Under the pieces are notes generated by a model. It did no database searches, had not been told where the DNA came from, and saw nothing but the letters and a program-made list of their open reading frames with translations. The translations under genes were made by a program, and so were the position numbers. This document shows positions 959-34,334 of a stretch of DNA of 64,000 nucleotides, in pieces (the first letter of the stretch is position 1; each line of letters starts with the position of its first letter). The DNA comes from an uncultured Faecalibacterium sp. Its GTDB lineage: Bacteria; Bacillota; Clostridia; Oscillospirales; Ruminococcaceae. The stretch is from positions 32,363 to 96,362 of the forward strand of contig CAMKDB010000001.1 in NCBI GenBank assembly GCA_946411155.1, in the 5' to 3' direction.

Positions 959-1933
959 TTACAGCAGGGCTTCCATTACTTTAAGATCTTCAGCGCTCAC
1001 TACCCGGTAATTTCGGGGATGTCCCTCGCAAAACCGCAATTCTCTTCCAAGGTGATACAGAAAAACAGCGCAGATCGTTTCGTCACACGGAAGGCCGATC
1101 CTGTCCGCATCATAAAAAGCCTGCCGTAGGAACCCGAAGTTATAGCACTCCGGAGATTTTACATTGATCAGCCTTTCAGCAGGGAGATGGGACAAGCCTT
1201 TTTCCGGATCGCTTCCGTTCAGAAGAAAAGGAGTCACAGGATCCATCCGCTCAAAAGTGACCGCACTTCCATATTGCCGGCAGCAGCGAATGGCGTTGGA
1301 GACCGTCTCAGGATCCACAAACGGACTTGTGCCGTCCTGAACGATCAGAACGTCCCACACATCGGCGGAAGCAGTCAGCCATTCTACGGCATTCCGTAAG
1401 GAAGTGACCCCGGATGAGCCCCCGTGAACGATACCCAAAAGTTTTGTGATTCCTTCTTTTTCAGCATAGGCAGAAAGATAATCTTCCCATCCGTTCAGAC
1501 ATACCGCAACGATTCCGTCTATCTGCGGGTGTCTCTGAAAGGCTTCCATGGTATATAGAATCACCGGTTTTTCACGCACCGTCACGAACTGGAAAGGTAT
1601 TCCGGCAACGTTCATATGTTTCATTCCGCCCGCAAGGATTACGGCGACACACCGCTGTTTTCTCTTTCTCCGCTCAGGCGGCTTCAGAACAGAAGGATCC
1701 GGAACGATGATCCCTTTCGGCAGATCGTTCTCCGGCTCATCATTCGCAAGATATCCCACAGTCGTATGGAGGATCTGCGCCAACTGCTGAAGCTGTTCTC
1801 CTGTGACAGGTGATGCGTCTTTTTCTATTCTGGTAATGGAGGAACGGTTCCTGTAGCCCATGGCGTCCGCCAGTTTCTGCTGACTGATTCCGAGAGCAAT
1901 GCGTTTTTTCCTTATATTTTTCCCCAGTGACAT
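959..1933 (-). CDS. XRE-family HTH domain fused to an IspD/TarI-like cytidylyltransferase-fold domain
   Basis: The N-terminus IRKKRIALGISQQKLADAMGYRNRSSITRIEKD is an HTH_3 type. The C-terminal ~230 aa has the IspD-like pattern CVAVILAGGMKHMNVAGIPFQFVTVREKPVILYTMEAF. A GGAGG RBS lies upstream of the ATG. Confidence 0.75.
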   Translation of the reverse strand: MSLGKNIRKKRIALGISQQKLADAMGYRNRSSITRIEKDASPVTGEQLQQLAQILHTTVGYLANDEPENDLPKGIIVPDPSVLKPPERRKRKQRCVAVILAGGMKHMNVAGIPFQFVTVREKPVILYTMEAFQRHPQIDGIVAVCLNGWEDYLSAYAEKEGITKLLGIVHGGSSGVTSLRNAVEWLTASADVWDVLIVQDGTSPFVDPETVSNAIRCCRQYGSAVTFERMDPVTPFLLNGSDPEKGLSHLPAERLINVKSPECYNFGFLRQAFYDADRIGLPCDETICAVFLYHLGRELRFCEGHPRNYRVVSAEDLKVMEALL

Positions 1934-2017
1934 GTTTCCGCCTCCTGCGCATTCTATATATACTATTTAATCAGCACACCCGCAGAAGGTCAATAAAATG
2001 TTGCATTGTTGCGTGTT

Positions 2018-2047
2018 AATCAACAAATGATCGGTAAGTTGTTGATT
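2018..2047. promoter_or_regulatory. perfect 9-bp inverted repeat AATCAACAA-N12-TTGTTGATT in a divergent intergenic region (candidate operator)
   Basis: Read directly from the sequence: 2018-2026 and 2039-2047 are exact reverse complements. The repeat lies between the HTH::IspD-like gene and the LicC-like gene. Confidence 0.35.
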
Positions 2048-2137
2048 CGAGCTTGTAAACAATCCGCTCACGTTGACCGCCGCAAGGATAAGGCTGTACG
2101 TTATTAACATGCAAAAAATGCGGAAAAGGGGAATTGT

Positions 2138-3028
2138 ATGGATAGGATCTCCTTCGAGATACTGAGCGCGATTGCGGAAAACAGAGACCTGTCGCTTGAC
2201 TGCCGGGTATTCGGATGGAAGCAGACAATGCTGGACGAGGCATGCGCGGCACTGGAACGGAACGGTTTTCTGTCCGGAGGTGCCGTGACGGAAGCGGGAC
2301 TCGAAGCCCTGGAACCTTACAGGGTTAAGCGCGCCGTGTTTATTGCAGCCGGCTTCGGCTCGCGGATGGTTCCCATTACGATCAACACCCCAAAACCGCT
2401 GGTGCGTGTTCACGGTAAGAGGATCATCGAGACGCTCATTGACGCGGTCCTTGCCGCCGGTATTACGGAGATCTTCATTGTTCGCGGTTATCTCGGAGAG
2501 CAATTTGAGCTTCTTCAGAAAAAATACCCGATGATCCATTTGGTGGACAATCCCGAATACGATGGTACCGGGACCATCTCCTCCTTTTTCTACGCACGGG
2601 AACTGCTTGAGCAGGCGTATGTGCTGGAATCCGATCTGGTCGTAGCAAACCCAAAGATCATACGGAAATACCACTTCAGCTCTGATTTCATGGGGATCCC
2701 CATGAAAGAGACGGACGACTGGTTCCTGAAGACAGACGCCGAAGGGACGATCCGAGAAATCGGCGTGAACGGGGCGGGAGATAATCTATTCCGTCTCATA
2801 GGAATCTCTTACTGGGACGCGGATGCCGGACACAGACTCGCTCTTGACATAAAGGAAGCATACGAGGGTCCCGATGGAAAAATGCTTCCCATGTCCTATG
2901 TGCCATTCCGGGTTTACCGAAACAGATATCAGGTCTCCGTGATGCCCTGTCAAGAAACGGATGTCATTGAGATCGATTCTTTCCGTGAACTCCAGGAAAT
3001 GGACATAAGCTATCAGATAAAAAGCTGA
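2138..3028 (+). CDS. LicC-like nucleotidyltransferase (CTP:phospho-headgroup cytidylyltransferase type) with a ~65-aa N-terminal extension
   Basis: The signature AVFIAAGFGSRMVPITINTPKPLVRVHGKRIIE is a G-x-G-x-R-M plus PKPL nucleotidyltransferase signature. The N-terminal 65 aa may be winged-helix-like. Confidence 0.75.
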   Translation: MDRISFEILSAIAENRDLSLDCRVFGWKQTMLDEACAALERNGFLSGGAVTEAGLEALEPYRVKRAVFIAAGFGSRMVPITINTPKPLVRVHGKRIIETLIDAVLAAGITEIFIVRGYLGEQFELLQKKYPMIHLVDNPEYDGTGTISSFFYARELLEQAYVLESDLVVANPKIIRKYHFSSDFMGIPMKETDDWFLKTDAEGTIREIGVNGAGDNLFRLIGISYWDADAGHRLALDIKEAYEGPDGKMLPMSYVPFRVYRNRYQVSVMPCQETDVIEIDSFRELQEMDISYQIKS

Positions 3029-3070: not shown

Positions 3071-4612
3071 ATGAAACAAAACATCAAAAAAATGCTCGCT
3101 GTTCTGCTGCTGACGAGTCTGACGCTGTCGCTCGTCTCCTGCGGCGGAAAACAGGAAACCGCGGATCCGGCGGAAAACTGGGACGGCGTTATTACCATCG
3201 TACAGTCTTCGGACGTCATCGGTTTCGACCCGACAGCTTCCACCGACACCAACAACAAAAACGTTCTGAAGAACATGGTCTCCCGTTTATATGAGACGGA
3301 TGACTATTTCAATCCGGTGCCTGTGCTTGCTACCGATTACAAACAGGTGAACGATTACACCTGGGAGTTCACCATCGCTTCCGATGTGCATTTTCACGAC
3401 GGCACAGTGCTGACTGTGGATGACGTCATTTACAGCCTGCAGCGCGCAAAGGAGAAATCCTCTTCCGGCAAGACCCTGCTGGGGCCGGTAGAAACCTTTG
3501 AAAAGGTGGACGAACATACGCTGCGCCTGACCACATCCACGGTTTATGGTTCCATGTTGACTGCGCTGTCCAATTCCGCCTGCACAATCCTCTCGAAAAC
3601 TTGGATCGAAAAGGCCGAAGCAGGGGAGTGCGACTGGGACGAAGTGATCCGCCAGGGTGCGACCGGCCGTTATATCCTGGGCGACCGTCAGATCGGAAAT
3701 CAGGTCGAACTTCTGAAGAATGAGAACTATTTCGATCCGAACGACGCAGCAAAAAATGACAAGCTCATTTTCCGGATCATTCCTGACGCCACCAGCCGTA
3801 CCGTCATGGTTCAGACCGGCGAAGCGGACGTGAACGTCAACTTTGATACGGCTGCAATGGACGATTGCCTTGCAGACCCGAACGTGCAGGTACTTCAGCA
3901 TGAGTCTTCCACGATCTATTACATTGCACTGAACTGTGAGAAAGGCCCCTTCACCAGCAAGGAACTGCGTCAGGCCGTCGCATGGGCGGTAAACCGTGCG
4001 GACTGCCTGGAGGTCGGTTACAACGGCTACGGCCGTGAATGGTCGAATGTCTGGGCACCTACTGTATACGGTGCTACTGACGATCCCTACACGCTGGACG
4101 AGGCCAAGGCAAAGGAACTGGTCGCAAAATCCGGCTACAACGGTGAGGTCATCTCCGCCTGTGTAAAAACCGACGCCGAGGAGCGCATCGCTCAGGCGGT
4201 TCAGGCTCATCTTGCCAAAGTCGGTATCACGATGAAATATTCCCGTATCGACAATACGATTCTTACGGAAGTAATGGCAAATAACGAGTATGATATGGCC
4301 TTCGACTACACCGCATTCTACAACGATCCCGAGTTGTTCGTAGGCCGTCAGTTCCAGGCGTCCGGCATCGGTGCGAAGAACTATTCGCACTATTCCAACC
4401 CGGAAGTCGATCGTCTGATGGAAGAGGCAAAGGCCACTCTGGACGAGAACAAGCGTATGGAATACTATCACCAGATCAACCAGATCCTCTGTGACGACTG
4501 TCCGTGGATCGGCATGTTCAACAGCAATCTCTACGCGCTTGCCCGCACCGGAATCCAGGGCGTCAACATCAACGTGGAGACGACCTATTGGTACAACACG
4601 ATCTGCTATTGA
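3071..4612 (+). CDS. ABC transporter substrate-binding lipoprotein, family 5 (Opp/Dpp/Nik type)
   Basis: Lipobox LTLSLVSCGG, a length of 513 aa and the family-5 SBP sequence pattern. GGAGG RBS. Confidence 0.85.
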   Translation: MKQNIKKMLAVLLLTSLTLSLVSCGGKQETADPAENWDGVITIVQSSDVIGFDPTASTDTNNKNVLKNMVSRLYETDDYFNPVPVLATDYKQVNDYTWEFTIASDVHFHDGTVLTVDDVIYSLQRAKEKSSSGKTLLGPVETFEKVDEHTLRLTTSTVYGSMLTALSNSACTILSKTWIEKAEAGECDWDEVIRQGATGRYILGDRQIGNQVELLKNENYFDPNDAAKNDKLIFRIIPDATSRTVMVQTGEADVNVNFDTAAMDDCLADPNVQVLQHESSTIYYIALNCEKGPFTSKELRQAVAWAVNRADCLEVGYNGYGREWSNVWAPTVYGATDDPYTLDEAKAKELVAKSGYNGEVISACVKTDAEERIAQAVQAHLAKVGITMKYSRIDNTILTEVMANNEYDMAFDYTAFYNDPELFVGRQFQASGIGAKNYSHYSNPEVDRLMEEAKATLDENKRMEYYHQINQILCDDCPWIGMFNSNLYALARTGIQGVNINVETTYWYNTICY

Positions 4613-4687
4613 TCGGAAATACGTTTATCACGACCCCGGAGACCTCACTGAGGACTCCGGGGCATCCCCATCCATAAAGGTACAGTC

Positions 4688-5698
4688 ATGATTCGTTATT
4701 CGTTCAAAAGGATTCTGTACATGATTCCGGTAACGATAGCAGTGATCTTTCTCGTTTACCTGATCATGTACCTGACACCGGGAGACCCGGTAGCGCTGTT
4801 GCTTGGCGGCGACGCGACCCCGGAGCTGATTGCGGAGACCCGCCAGAAACTGGGCATCACGGATCCCTTCCTTGTCCAATTCGGGCGTTACCTGTGGAAT
4901 CTGCTCCACGGGGATTTCGGTATGTCCTGGTATACCGGAAGGCCGGTGGCGGAACGTCTCTTTTCAGCGATTCCGTTTACTGTGACCCTGAGTCTGTGCT
5001 CCATGCTGGTCGCACTGCTGATCTCGGTTCCTTTAGGTATCCTTGCGGCAGTGAACCGCAATACGGTCTCAGACTATGTGATCAGCGTTTTTGCCATGAT
5101 CGGCGTCTCGGCGCCGACGTTCTGGGTCGGAACGATGCTGCTTCTCTGGTTCTCTTTGGGCCTGAGAATGCTGCCTTCCGCCTACGACGGCACCTGGCGG
5201 AGCATGGTGCTTCCAACGATTACACAGGGTTTCAATATGCTGGCGAGTATCGTCCGCACCCAGCGTTCCTCCATGCTGGAGGTTCTGAGTTCAGACTATA
5301 TTCGAACGGCACGCGCCAAAGGCGTCAGCAGATTCAGCGCGACTTATAAGCATGCGCTGCGCAACGCAGTTCTGCCCTCCATTACAGTCGCAGGACTGGA
5401 TTTCAGCCTTTTGGTCGGCGGATCGGTCGCCATCGAGACCGTGTTCGCCATCCCCGGAGTGGGAAGGCTGATGATCGATAATATCAAATTGCACGATACA
5501 CCCACGGTCATCGGGTGCATGGTATTTGTTTCGGTGATGGTCAGTATCATCAATCTGCTGGTCGACATCCTGTACGGACTGATCGACCCCAGAATCAAAG
5601 CGCAGTATTTAAGAGGAGCCGGTAATGGCAGAAAAGAAGAACCGAAAGAAAAAGGAAAGTCAGGCGAGACAGGTCTGGAAACGGTTCCGGAAAAATAA
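4688..5698 (+). CDS. ABC transporter permease (OppB/DppB type)
   Basis: N-terminal LTPGDPVALLLGGDATPE and C-terminal LIDPRIK are typical of this family, and the protein is polytopic. Its 3' tail overlaps the next gene by 74 nt. Confidence 0.85.
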   Translation: MIRYSFKRILYMIPVTIAVIFLVYLIMYLTPGDPVALLLGGDATPELIAETRQKLGITDPFLVQFGRYLWNLLHGDFGMSWYTGRPVAERLFSAIPFTVTLSLCSMLVALLISVPLGILAAVNRNTVSDYVISVFAMIGVSAPTFWVGTMLLLWFSLGLRMLPSAYDGTWRSMVLPTITQGFNMLASIVRTQRSSMLEVLSSDYIRTARAKGVSRFSATYKHALRNAVLPSITVAGLDFSLLVGGSVAIETVFAIPGVGRLMIDNIKLHDTPTVIGCMVFVSVMVSIINLLVDILYGLIDPRIKAQYLRGAGNGRKEEPKEKGKSGETGLETVPEK

Positions 5699-6500
5699 GA
5701 TCGCCATGCTGGCGCTGTTTATCCTCACGGTCATAGTGCTGGCGGCATGTACAGCGGATCTGTTCTGGGATTATGAAGCAGACGCTTGTGAGATCCACGT
5801 TTCCGACCGCCTGCAGAAGCCGTCTGCCGAACACTGGCTTGGAACCGATGAGATGGGCAGGGATATGCTGTGCCGTATCGTTTACGGCGCACGCGCCTCC
5901 CTCACGGTAGGTCTGACTGCCACCACTTTTGCGCTGCTCGTCGGCGGCGCACTCGGCGCGGTATGCGGATATTACGGAGGTGCTCTGGACAATATCATCA
6001 TGAGATGTACGGACGTTCTTCTTGCGATCCCGGGCCTTCTTCTTGCCATTGCTATCATGAGTGCGTTCGAGCCCAATATCTTTTACATCAGCCTCTCGCT
6101 GGGCATTTCCTACATTTCGAAGTTCACAAGGATCGTCCGCTCTGCGGTTCTCACCGTAAGAGAGCAGGAATATATTGAAGCGGCGAGGGCGATCGGCGCG
6201 CAGGACCATGTTATCATTCTCAAACATGTACTGATGAACTGTATGGCGCCGATTCTCGTACAGTACGCACTTGCTATCGGCAGCCGTATCCTCTCTGTAT
6301 CCACATTGAGTTACATCGGCATGGGCATTCAGGCACCGACACCGGACTGGGGAAATATGCTCTCCGGCGCCCGCGCCTATATCCGCGGAAACGCCTATCT
6401 CGTTCTGGGGCCGGGCATCGCTCTTCTTCTGACGATCAGCGCATTCAACCTGATTGGAGACGGATTGCGGGATGCTCTGGATCCGCGGCTGAAACGGTAG
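5625..6500 (+). CDS. ABC transporter permease (OppC/DppC type)
   Basis: VWKRFRKNKIAMLAL N-terminus, LGTDEMGRDMLCRIVYGAR motif and C-terminal DALDPRLK. Confidence 0.85.
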   Translation: MAEKKNRKKKESQARQVWKRFRKNKIAMLALFILTVIVLAACTADLFWDYEADACEIHVSDRLQKPSAEHWLGTDEMGRDMLCRIVYGARASLTVGLTATTFALLVGGALGAVCGYYGGALDNIIMRCTDVLLAIPGLLLAIAIMSAFEPNIFYISLSLGISYISKFTRIVRSAVLTVREQEYIEAARAIGAQDHVIILKHVLMNCMAPILVQYALAIGSRILSVSTLSYIGMGIQAPTPDWGNMLSGARAYIRGNAYLVLGPGIALLLTISAFNLIGDGLRDALDPRLKR

Positions 6501-6512
6501 GGGGTATGCATT

Positions 6513-7556
6513 ATGGACGAAAAGAAAGATCTCATGCTTGATATCCGGGACCTGTCTGTGGAATACCGAACCGACGAAGAAACCGTCAAAGCGGTCAACG
6601 GTGTCAGTCTGCAGATTAGACGGGGAAAATCCCTCGGGCTTGTCGGTGAGACAGGAGCAGGAAAAACTACCACTGCTCTTGCAGTACTGAATCTGCTTCC
6701 CGAAACTACCGGCGTCATCACAGGCGGAATCATCTCGGTGGACGGCGAAGAGATCATAAAAAGAAACGGGAAGGGCGAGAGCGTATCCGCAAAAACCGAC
6801 AGTCAGATGCAGAAGATCCGCGGTGAGAAAGTCGCCATGATCTTCCAGGATCCCATGACTGCATTGAATCCGATTTTTACTGTCGGTGATCAGATCGCTG
6901 AAGCGGTACTGCTTCACCAGAACTGTTCCAGAAAAGAAGCTGTTGCCAAAGCTGAGGAGATGCTCGAACTGGTCGGTATTCCCGCCGGGCGTAAGGACGA
7001 TTATCCGCACCAGTTTTCCGGCGGTATGAAGCAGCGCGTGGTCATCGCCATGGCGCTGGCATGCAATCCCTCTCTTCTGATCGCGGACGAACCGACCACC
7101 GCTCTGGATGTGACCATCCAGGCACAGGTGTTGGAGATGATCAAGGAACTCAGGGAACGGTTTGGCACATCCGTCCTGATGATCACCCACGACCTTGGAA
7201 TCATTGCCGAGACCTGCGATGAAGTTTCTGTCATGTACGCGGGCTCCATCGTTGAACATGGCAACCTGGAAGACGTCTTCGACCGGACCCGTCATCCTTA
7301 TACGCAAGGGCTTTTCAATTCTCTGCCCAACATCCAGGACAGAACCGCAAGGCTGAAACCTATCCGCGGATTGATGCCTGATCCTGCTAATCTGCCTGCC
7401 GGCTGCGCCTTTGCAGACCGGTGCGACTATGCCTGTGACGTCTGCCGATCCGCGAAACCGGCAGGAAAATGGCTGACCGATACCCACTATGTGGCGTGCG
7501 TCCTCTATGAGGACGGAGCAGACGAAGACCGCCTCGGAAAGGAGAAGCAGGAATGA
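6513..7556 (+). CDS. ABC transporter ATP-binding protein (OppD/DppD type)
   Basis: Walker A GETGAGKTT, signature FSGGMKQR and Walker B LLIADEPTTALD, plus the C-terminal Cys-rich oligopeptide-type extension. Confidence 0.9.
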   Translation: MDEKKDLMLDIRDLSVEYRTDEETVKAVNGVSLQIRRGKSLGLVGETGAGKTTTALAVLNLLPETTGVITGGIISVDGEEIIKRNGKGESVSAKTDSQMQKIRGEKVAMIFQDPMTALNPIFTVGDQIAEAVLLHQNCSRKEAVAKAEEMLELVGIPAGRKDDYPHQFSGGMKQRVVIAMALACNPSLLIADEPTTALDVTIQAQVLEMIKELRERFGTSVLMITHDLGIIAETCDEVSVMYAGSIVEHGNLEDVFDRTRHPYTQGLFNSLPNIQDRTARLKPIRGLMPDPANLPAGCAFADRCDYACDVCRSAKPAGKWLTDTHYVACVLYEDGADEDRLGKEKQE

Positions 7557-8527
7557 GCAACGCACCGGAGCAAGACATCCTGCTGGATGTCCGTCATCTA
7601 AAGAAATATTTCCCAACCGACGCAGGGATGCTTCACGCAGTGGACGACGTATCCTTCACCATCGAGCGAGGAAAAACCCTGGGCATCGTCGGAGAATCCG
7701 GCTGCGGAAAATCCACCATCGGCCGAACGATTCTGCGTCTCATCGAACCGACTTCCGGTGAGGTATATTTTGAAGGTAAAAACATTCTCACGTTTTCCAA
7801 GCGTGAAATGCGGCGTCTGAGACAGGATATGCAGATCATTTTTCAGGATCCGTATTCCTCCCTCGATCCGCGTATGACGATCAGCCAGACAATCGCTGAA
7901 CCGCTGATCCTTCACGGAATCGTGAAGGACCGGAAACAAAGGGAACAGCGGGTCCTCGAACTGATGGAAACGGTCGGACTTGCTGAGCGCCTGTACGATA
8001 CTTACCCCCACGAACTGGACGGCGGCCGCCGCCAGCGTGTGGGCATCGCACGTGCACTGGCCATGAACCCGAAATTCATCGTATGCGACGAGCCTGTATC
8101 GGCGCTGGACGTTTCTATCCAGGCCCAAATCCTGAACCTGATGCAGGACATTCAGGAGCAGGAGCACCTCACTTATATTTTCATCACCCATGATCTTTCT
8201 GTTGTGAACCATTTTGCGGACGAGATCCTTGTCATGTATATGGGACGAATGGTCGAAAAGGCGGATGCGGAAACGCTGTTCCGCAATCCGATCCATCCAT
8301 ATACGCGCGCACTCCTGTCGGCAATCCCGATTCCAGACATCCATCACCGGATGGATCGTATCGTTCTGAAAGGGGAAGTGGTGTCGCCCATTGAGCCTGA
8401 TGCTGCCTGCCGGTTCGCTCCCCGCTGTCCTGAGGTTTGTGAGCAATGCCGGAACAGCGAGCCCGCTTTTGTTGAGGTTGAGCCCGGTCACTGGGTCGCC
8501 TGTTCGGTCTGCGGAAAAAACGGGTAA
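7553..8527 (+). CDS. ABC transporter ATP-binding protein (OppF/DppF type)
   Basis: Walker [10 protein letters not shown], signature-like LDGGRRQR and Walker [17 protein letters not shown] overlap with the upstream gene. Confidence 0.9.
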
Positions 8528-34277: not shown

Positions 34278-34334
34278 TGTTGAAACAGAAATATCAGATG
34301 TTGAAGGTGTTGAAAACAGGATGTTGATTGTTGA
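34278..34334. repeat. five same-orientation copies of a TGTTGA core (9-mers TGTTGAAAC, TGTTGAAGG, TGTTGAAAA, TGTTGATTG, TGTTGAAAA); degenerate DnaA-box-like
   Basis: The cores start at 34278, 34299, 34308, 34322 and 34329. The best copies differ at 2 of 9 positions from TGTGGATAA, the complement of TTATCCACA. Confidence 0.5.

Follow-up and report, generated by a model that had tools for sequence, protein, structure and literature searches.

The DNA considered here is a 64,000-nt stretch (the window) of the genome of an uncultured Faecalibacterium sp. (contig CAMKDB010000001.1 of assembly GCA_946411155.1), and the subject is a gene near its left end for a putative regulator, in which a helix-turn-helix (HTH) of the XRE type is joined to a domain with the fold of the cytidylyltransferases IspD and TarI. 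A spacer separates this gene from a divergently oriented gene for a LicC-like cytidylyltransferase, which is followed by the genes of an ABC importer. The features are listed in Table 1; coordinates are positions in the window unless a locus or contig label is given. A ribosome-binding site, AGGAGG, sits 8 nt 5' of the ATG of the regulator gene.

Table 1. Features of the regulator locus and of the divergent spacer.
Feature	Position	Strand	Description
Regulator gene	959-1933	minus	324 aa, stop codon 959-961; from the open reading frame (ORF) list and Pfam HTH_3/IspD
IspD/TarI-fold domain, catalytically eroded	962-1651	minus	residues 95-324; PF01128
Linker	1652-1747	minus	about 32 residues (63-94), ends in basic RRKRKQR; lowest model confidence in the regulator
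XRE-type HTH	1748-1915	minus	residues 7-62; PF01381 HTH_3, E 5e-9
Spacer, regulator/LicC-like gene	1934-2137		204 bp
TTAATCAGCA	1967-1976		90% direct copy of TTAATCAACA (2016-2025); candidate spacer/-10 region of the regulator promoter
Half-site E, TCAATA	1990-1995		one mismatch; overlaps candidate -35 GGTCAA (1988-1993, +) of the regulator promoter
Half-site D, TGTTGC	1999-2004		one mismatch; tight palindrome with E; invariant columns
Half-site D', TGTTGC	2007-2012		invariant columns in F1 spacer alignment
Central palindrome, AATCAACAA-N12-TTGTTGATT	2018-2047		half-sites B and C; unique in genome
Half-site A, CGTTGA	2071-2076	plus	one mismatch; overlaps candidate -35 TTGACC (2073-2078) of the licC-like promoter
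LicC-like cytidylyltransferase gene	2138-3028	plus	296 aa; Pfam NTP_transferase; presumed regulated gene
Opp/Dpp-type ABC importer	3071-8527	plus	family-5 binding protein, two permeases, two ATPases; Pfam SBP_bac_5

Architecture and lost catalytic residues of the regulator

A first-pass annotation of the window had described the protein as an XRE HTH joined to a full-length IspD-fold domain, and this architecture was confirmed by Pfam, AlphaFold2, and Foldseek. In Pfam, the HTH_3 match covers the whole profile (36.4 bits against a cut-off of 23), and the PF01128 match spans residues 96-324 (E 1e-15, 58.2 bits against a cut-off of 27). The ispD and TarI models of NCBIfam also align end to end with the domain, with scores far under their naming cut-offs: 83.9 versus 181.3 bits for TIGR00453, 83.3 versus 253 for NF001186, and 67.2 versus 166 for the TarI subfamily model NF001183. 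An AlphaFold2 model based on an alignment of 42 members of the family has high confidence (mean predicted local distance difference test score, pLDDT, 90.4; predicted template-modelling score, pTM, 0.76) and consists of a five-helix HTH, a lower-confidence linker of about 30 residues (pLDDT 62-77 at residues 61-90), and an alpha/beta domain. Foldseek matched the alpha/beta domain to IspD from Thermotoga maritima and Bacillus subtilis and to TarI from Staphylococcus aureus, Streptococcus pneumoniae, and B. subtilis. Against 1vpa, 6xhr, and 5hs2, E values reach down to 2e-19 and template-modelling (TM) scores normalised by target length are 0.82-0.89, the values for T. maritima IspD (1vpa) being 2e-19 and 0.89. 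The regulator is thus a member of the XRE HTH family and, at the level of the fold, of the IspD family. An artefact or a decaying gene was considered and rejected in view of the intact ORF, near-identical copies in independent samples, and conserved synteny; metagenomes hold proteins 99% and 93% identical to the regulator.

In the structure of B. subtilis IspD with cytidine triphosphate (CTP), three strictly conserved basic residues, a Lys, an Arg, and a second Lys, contact the triphosphate, and Ala10 N, Gly80 O, and Ser86 OG recognise the cytosine (PMC5099578). According to a review (PMC5020098, citing Richard et al. 2004), the two Lys stabilise the pentavalent transition state. The Lys, the Arg, which lies in the P-loop and contacts the alpha and gamma phosphates of CTP, and the second Lys are K27, R20, and K213 in Escherichia coli and K22, R15, and K209 in B. 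subtilis, respectively.

The regulator reads L-A-G-G-M-K-H-M-N at residues 100-108 and I-P-F-Q-F at residues 112-116, exactly as quoted in the first-pass annotation, which had placed Phe at the position of E. coli Lys27 and His at that of Arg20. The first assignment holds, as Phe114 faces the Lys of PKQF in every HMMER alignment to solved IspD and TarI structures. The second is off by one for IspD-type enzymes: the alignment with their loops (T. maritima 1vpa) is ungapped, with the Arg-to-Lys spacing of B. subtilis R15/K22, and the Arg column is occupied by Met107, His106 lying one position before. The loop of TarI is one residue longer, which opens a gap in the HMMER alignment, and only there does His106 stand opposite the Arg. 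It had been allowed that a proper alignment might restore the Arg and the Lys; the alignments to solved enzymes show neither residue in the regulator. Overall, its three basic triphosphate positions are Met107, Phe114, and Arg310, and the substrate-side Arg of the HDxxRP motif is replaced by S203. The cytosine-contact positions G102, G172, and S178 are as in the enzymes.

To what extent this pattern is shared was read from an alignment of 210 proteins classed as fused, together with 102 standalone relatives; the fused clade comprises a subclade F1, which includes the window regulator, and a subclade F2. G102, G172, and S178 are kept in 207, 198, and 209 of the 210 fused proteins. The catalytic Lys column holds K in 99 of the 102 standalone proteins and in none of the 208 members of the fused clade; the two Lys-bearing proteins in the set of 210 fall outside the clade, one (P0193) having no HTH fusion and the other (P0149) being an independent fusion with an intact enzyme. 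The Lys is replaced by Ser, Asn, or Thr in one subclade and by Leu, Tyr, Phe, or Ile in the other, while the flanking Pro, Gln, and Phe are invariant. In the P-loop Arg column, R is found in 98 of the 102 standalone proteins and in 123 of the 155 F2 members, and V, I, L, or M in F1, where the position matching His106 of the window regulator is Arg in 44 of 55 members. The second catalytic Lys has undergone a conservative change to Arg310 in the regulator and in 53 of the 55 F1 proteins, and is Lys in 151 of the 155 F2 proteins. The clade as a whole bears the signature LAGGKxxxN and IPxQF, with Q-E-(A/S)-T-R-P for H-D-(G/A)-x-R-P and S-P-E for T-P-Q. The pocket signature of F1 is NRV... with a hydrophobic residue at 114 and Arg310, that of F2 is SGR... 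with Ser or Asn at 114 and Lys310, and the two subclades differ in partner module as well. Within F2, KSGRN...QEATR goes with one module, that of a major facilitator superfamily (MFS) transporter described below, and KS[TSV]RN...QESTR with other modules. These differences between subclades and modules appear consistent with ligand tuning, but they are confounded with phylogeny.

The regulator does not show the catalytic hallmarks by which IspD and TarI enzymes are defined, and it is not to be annotated as one of them. At least 570 calls of the kind 'XRE family transcriptional regulator / IspD' are not to be read as enzymes of the methylerythritol phosphate (MEP) pathway or of CDP-ribitol synthesis.

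A word-indexed search of 5.8 billion proteins returned 197 matches; the 120 listed are all HTH_3 + IspD proteins of 287-349 aa, and the few named among these 120 of 197 are called 'XRE family transcriptional regulator' and come from metagenome-assembled genomes (MAGs) of Clostridia. In an exhaustive HMMER search, the fused proteins rank first and are followed by many standalone proteins of about 235 aa with 30-37% identity. At least 570 encoding stretches were confirmed in a scan of one genome per prokaryote species, and the 80 that were fetched are almost all from gut or rumen Oscillospirales (Acutalibacteraceae, Oscillospiraceae, Faecousia, and Ruminococcus). In a tree of the IspD-fold domain, the fused proteins form one clade with a support of 100 and a stem of 0.57 substitutions per site, which is nested among standalone TarI-like enzymes, including a 236-aa paralogue from the window genome itself, and splits into F1 and F2. 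As read from these sequences, the pattern is that of a single fusion, a basal loss of the Lys, and subsequent purifying selection on a changed pocket, as would be expected of a pseudoenzyme turned sensor.

The 236-aa TarI-like paralogue (G000:C1:1833-2507; L002:1471-2181, minus) lies on the same contig about 30 kb upstream of the window; its GSGQRM, IPKQF, HDAIRP, and N-L-K motifs are intact, and it is predicted to be a close active relative of the dead domain. An ispDF-type gene is found on contig 72 of the same genome. The separate fusion P0149 (L094:4280-5248; 322 aa, 123 bits on PF01128) keeps GGVGSRV, RPKQF, and N-I-K and lies outside the Lys-lacking clade; its gene points in the same direction as neighbouring LicD and MFS genes, and it may be a bifunctional enzyme-regulator or a fusion at an early stage.

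The divergent spacer as a candidate operator

The spacer had been reported to carry a perfect palindrome, which was proposed as the site of the regulator. The palindrome is exact, with 9-nt arms at 2018-2026 and 2039-2047 around a 12-nt spacer, it occurs once in the 2-Mb assembly, and its half-site is conserved throughout the family; as a site, it is the central pair, B and C, of an array of five TCAACA half-sites. Considered alone, it is modestly unlikely, since an arm of at least 9 nt arose in 1.8% of 2000 dinucleotide shuffles of the spacer (p 0.018). In an alignment of the seven F1 spacers, which have a mean identity of 47%, invariant blocks are confined to the TCAAC(A) cores: all seven spacers have TCAACA and TGTTGA at the palindrome positions and TCAAC at site A. 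Sites B and C, both perfect in the window, lie 21 bp apart centre to centre. In the related loci L086 and L004, site A overlaps TTGACG-N17-TATAAT directed toward the licC-like gene (read by eye), and relatives hold a perfect D/E palindrome, for example GTCAACATTTTGTTGAC in L086, the right half of which is the -35 box of the regulator promoter.

The same half-site recurs beyond F1. Of 74 divergent spacers, 65 contain the 8-mer AATCAACA on one strand or the other, where shuffled sequences would give 1.5. The spacers have 7.6 copies per kb and are thereby 133-fold denser in the 8-mer than the 1.12 Mb of DNA that flanks them in the same loci (0.057 per kb). In F2, CTTGAAAATCAC-N4-TGTTGATTTATAATAtaCA is found about 43 bp upstream of the regulator ATG, with unconserved sequence on either side, and reads as a -35 box TTGAAA, a 17-bp spacer filled by the palindrome AAATCA-N8-TGATTT, and a -10 box TATAAT. 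Judged by its sequence, this layout is that of a classic autorepressed promoter. A second F2 block consists of GTTGA repeats that overlap a TTGAC/TATAAT promoter facing the transferase gene. The recognition helix of the regulators, R30-S31-x-I33-x-x-x-E37, is near-invariant (column conservation 0.97-0.99 in the 210 fused proteins of both subclades), which fits a shared half-site.

Other roles of the motif were considered and rejected. A cre/CcpA-type site or that of another global regulator was set aside as the motif strictly co-occurs with the regulator gene, and an RNA hairpin or terminator as the palindrome sits between divergent promoters. Further targets were sought genome-wide as TCAACA-N12-16-TGTTGA and TCAACA-N1-5-TGTTGA, and the two extra matches, which are both inside ORFs and at the level of a reversed-pattern control, were rejected as targets. 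Elsewhere in the window, at 34278-34334, five TGTTGA(A/T) cores in the same orientation occur within 57 bp as direct, irregularly spaced repeats; the core is identical to the half-site of the regulator, and one copy makes the window's only other AATCAACA (34322-34329).

Partner modules and a proposed sensing role

The first-pass annotation had taken the divergent gene to encode a LicC-like enzyme with intact GFGSRM and PKPL motifs, and it does. AAGFGSRM...TPKPL is intact, the best solved relative is S. pneumoniae LicC (1jyk; E 1e-25, residues 59-288), and a phosphonate cytidylyltransferase from Treponema (6pd1) is the second solved match. Neighbouring genes in the other loci were identified by tblastn with the window proteins, by directed neighbour extraction, and from pre-called genes. 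A nucleotidyltransferase gene is divergent from the regulator gene in 71 of 75 fused loci; 63 of these 71 partners cluster with the LicC-like protein of the window, and representative partners are LicC-type enzymes by Pfam and PDB searches. The partner is fused to a choline kinase in L027 and L070, and to a CTP_transf_like domain and a phosphoenolpyruvate (PEP) mutase in L054. An IspD-type enzyme takes the place of this neighbour in L053 and also in the P0110 contig; in the latter, an FGGY kinase follows it.

The modules differ between the subclades. In F1 (the window, L004, L005, L086-L088, and the P0002 contig), the gene order is the same throughout, and the conserved six-gene module includes, in all seven loci, the regulator, a 295-aa LicC-like enzyme, the family-5 binding protein, two permeases, and two ATPases. 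The surroundings of the module are surface-polysaccharide loci of variable content, which encode LicD, glycosyltransferases, Wzz, and flippases. In F2, the partner is a 246-aa transferase, and an MFS transporter then follows in 52 of the 66 loci whose sequence extends far enough; in NCBIfam, this transporter matches best the organophosphate:phosphate antiporters PgtP, UhpC, and GlpT (E 6e-48, below cut-off). What the modules have in common is an importer and a cytidylyltransferase, usually without a kinase, which suggests import of a head group that is already phosphorylated and its direct activation with cytidine diphosphate (CDP). Neither choline kinase (PF01633) nor PEP mutase (PF13714) was found in the window assembly, which is only 69% complete.

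A proposed mode of action can be potentially described as follows. The regulator probably dimerises through its enzyme-like domain, and its XRE HTHs would bind the TCAACA array, with the perfect central pair as the core and the weaker outer half-sites overlapping the -35 regions of the regulator promoter and of the promoter of the licC-like/ABC-importer operon. Bound in this way, it would repress both divergent promoters. A ligand in the former active site, such as CTP, a CDP-activated head group, or the imported organophosphate, would alter DNA binding, and expression of the import-and-activation module would thereby be tied to how much head group is available, or required, for LicD-type transferases to add to surface glycopolymers. 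That the regulator is a dimeric or higher-order local repressor, which shuts both promoters from the array and whose dead pocket binds a cytidine nucleotide and/or a head-group phosphate that sets its affinity for DNA, is given a probability of about 0.7. From the features of the protein and the spacer we infer specific DNA binding, dimerisation, repression rather than activation, ligand binding, and the kind of ligand; control of the adjoining import and CDP-activation module by the regulators of this family is probable. Since the basic residues that contact the triphosphate have been lost and the base contacts kept, a ligand of the CDP or CMP type, or an organophosphate, may be weakly favoured over CTP.

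Several points weigh against this proposal. In most F2 members, the P-loop Arg, the substrate-side Arg, and the second Lys are still in place, and residual or altered catalysis is possible there. The window regulator is the most eroded of its subclade (H106, D200, and S203), as might also result from a relaxed or decaying pocket. The distance of about 21 bp between the centres of the half-sites is wide for a single XRE dimer. Because a consensus scan found no sigma-70 promoter in 1880-2200, the -35 boxes that sites A and E would overlap are drawn from weak hexamers and by analogy from the relatives L086, L088, and L004, and the promoter positions in the window are tentative. Some F2 modules are 80-92% identical between genomes, and part of the spacer conservation reflects recent common descent; the F2 motif blocks still point to a footprint, as their flanks are unconserved. 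Finally, all family members are known from sequence alone.

Among the alternatives, the one that survives best, though it is unlikely, is that the domain merely dimerises or oligomerises, and that the repressor is constitutive, purely autoregulated, or controlled in some other way, with no sensing of a small molecule. IspD and TarI are obligate dimers, XRE repressors need a dimerising partner domain, and the advanced degradation of the window regulator's pocket would be in keeping with such a role. However, the residues that are invariant in the clade (AGG, PxQF, G172, S178, T202-R203-P204, S260-P261-E262, and N308) are those of the pocket and of base binding, beyond the dimer arm, and the pocket signature shifts between subclades with different partner modules, which would be unexpected for a mere scaffold.

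It is less probable still that the regulator is a bifunctional enzyme-repressor in the manner of BirA or NadR, with other residues replacing the Lys and its own CDP-alcohol product serving as corepressor. The full fold, the P-loop glycines, and the cytosine-binding Ser are kept, F2 also retains the P-loop Arg, the substrate-side Arg, and the second Lys, and the existence of P0149, with GxGxR and PKQF intact, makes an active fused enzyme possible in principle. Against this stand the loss of the Lys from every clade member with unconstrained replacements, in contrast to the standalone proteins, the further absence of the Arg (M107) and the substrate-side Arg (S203) from the window regulator, and its NCBIfam scores (84 versus 181 bits for ispD and 67 versus 166 for TarI); moreover, a true cytidylyltransferase adjoins the regulator, and the genome also has the ispDF gene and the standalone TarI-like gene. 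Least probable of all is that the dead domain heterodimerises with, or titrates, an active TarI- or LicC-like enzyme whose abundance or state would set DNA binding: the domain does come from a dimeric enzyme family, an active paralogue is encoded about 30 kb away on the same contig, and a cytidylyltransferase gene always adjoins the regulator gene, but the usual partner is LicC-type and not IspD-type, so that a shared dimer interface is unlikely, and the conserved nucleotide-binding positions would be left unexplained.

A bolder version of the proposed sensor-repressor is put forward tentatively, the odds being somewhat against it: the clade as a whole may consist of allosteric sensors whose pocket binds the product of the neighbouring enzyme or the imported X-phosphate, with F1 and F2 tuned to different head groups and the TCAACA array acting as a cooperative multi-dimer shut-off. 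If so, the regulator would be the first described transcription factor to read CDP-alcohol pools, and the modules would represent an unrecognised kinase-less salvage route of organophosphate import and cytidylylation for the decoration of surface polymers in gut and rumen Clostridia.

Enzyme folds that serve as sensors in repressors are known. PurR of B. subtilis joins a DNA-binding domain to an inactive phosphoribosyltransferase-like sensor that binds phosphoribosyl pyrophosphate (PRPP), and NrtR-type regulators join one to an inactive Nudix-like sensor that binds ADP-ribose. The regulator has this architecture, a DNA-binding domain and an enzyme fold without the catalytic residues; as in PurR and NrtR, the fold of a pathway enzyme has lost catalysis, kept its pocket, and been fused to a DNA-binding repressor of pathway genes, both repression and the ligand being proposed here. 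It differs from them in that the sensor has a GT-A-like cytidylyltransferase fold, the DNA-binding domain is an XRE HTH_3, and the pathway is the CDP-activation of surface head groups. BirA and NadR are repressors fused to active adenylate-forming or adenylyltransferase enzymes. The first-pass annotation had invoked them as the model, and they do share with the regulator a nucleotidyl-transfer enzyme domain, an HTH, and, as proposed here, control of genes of the same pathway. However, both are active, whereas the whole clade lacks the catalytic Lys and its window member the Arg too, and the dead sensors PurR and NrtR therefore fit better. Overall, the parts of that annotation that could be tested on sequence were all borne out, with refinements to the Arg position, to the palindrome as part of an array, and to the analogy.

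With the IspD and TarI enzymes (PF01128; 1vpa, 6xhp-6xht, 2vsh, 4jis, and 5hs2), the domain shares the fold, the P-loop glycines, the cytosine-binding Ser, and the dimer-arm region, and it is nested phylogenetically among the TarI-like enzymes of Clostridia. It differs in the missing catalytic Lys and Arg, the fused HTH, scores below the NCBIfam equivalog and subfamily cut-offs, and the changes of HD(G/A)xRP to Q(E/D)(A/S/G)T(R/S)P and of TPQ to SPE. XRE repressors with C-terminal sensor or oligomerisation domains (PuuR-cupin, RamB, SinR, DicA, and RstR; weak NCBIfam matches) likewise begin with a Cro/CI-type HTH; their palindromic operators, which lie within promoter hexamers or between them, and their autoregulation from a divergent spacer would also have counterparts here, the sites being candidates. 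Unlike the regulator, no XRE member described in the literature that was searched has an effector domain of the cytidylyltransferase fold; these searches returned no paper on an XRE or other HTH regulator of this kind, and those on clostridial regulators of lic genes gave no relevant paper.

The encounter of gut bacteria with host immunity and with phages is shaped by the head groups of surface glycopolymers, among them phosphocholine, phosphonates, and polyol phosphates. Their regulation in Clostridia is essentially unexplored, and the organisms considered here are uncultured MAGs. Across hundreds of species, the family brings together a regulator, an operator predicted with precision, and a compact regulon as a ready-made system. 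It also presents a clean case of a pseudoenzyme, with a single origin, one catalytic Lys lost, base recognition kept, and retuning specific to each subclade. Biosensor parts for CTP and CDP-alcohols are a possible use.

Observations on the neighbouring genes

Residues 1-61 of the LicC-like protein (2138-2320) form an N-terminal extension of about 60 aa. Neither S. pneumoniae LicC nor the 246-aa partners of F2 have it; it is conserved in every F1 partner and in L070, in the fusion of LicC with a choline kinase. Its pattern is F-E-x-L...A-E...G-x-L...T-E-x-G-L-x-A-L-E-P-Y, and the only match is a weak one to HTH_67 (E 0.05); the extension could be a small winged-helix-like domain.

In F2, the 246-aa cytidylyltransferase is 80-92% and the MFS transporter 56-91% identical to the copies in L089 (L089:5783-7839; 52 other loci). 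These identities span genomes assigned to different families and exceed the conservation of the regulator itself, which suggests either strong constraint or the horizontal spread of a cassette for kinase-less organophosphate import and cytidylylation.

In the ABC importer of the window, the second permease, if taken from its long-ORF start, shares 74 nt with the first (5625-5698). Gene calls in four related contigs give a 264-aa product, so that translation probably starts at an ATG further downstream and the shared stretch is an artefact of ORF listing. At the left edge of the window, a truncated TagF-like ORF (2-562) is the C-terminus of a 633-aa protein; in the near-identical P0002 contig, this protein consists of a YidC/60KD_IMP-type membrane-insertase domain and a CDP-glycerol glycerophosphotransferase domain. 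The next gene (559-828) encodes an 89-aa membrane protein, a homologue of which adjoins a TagF-like gene in L039 and L077.

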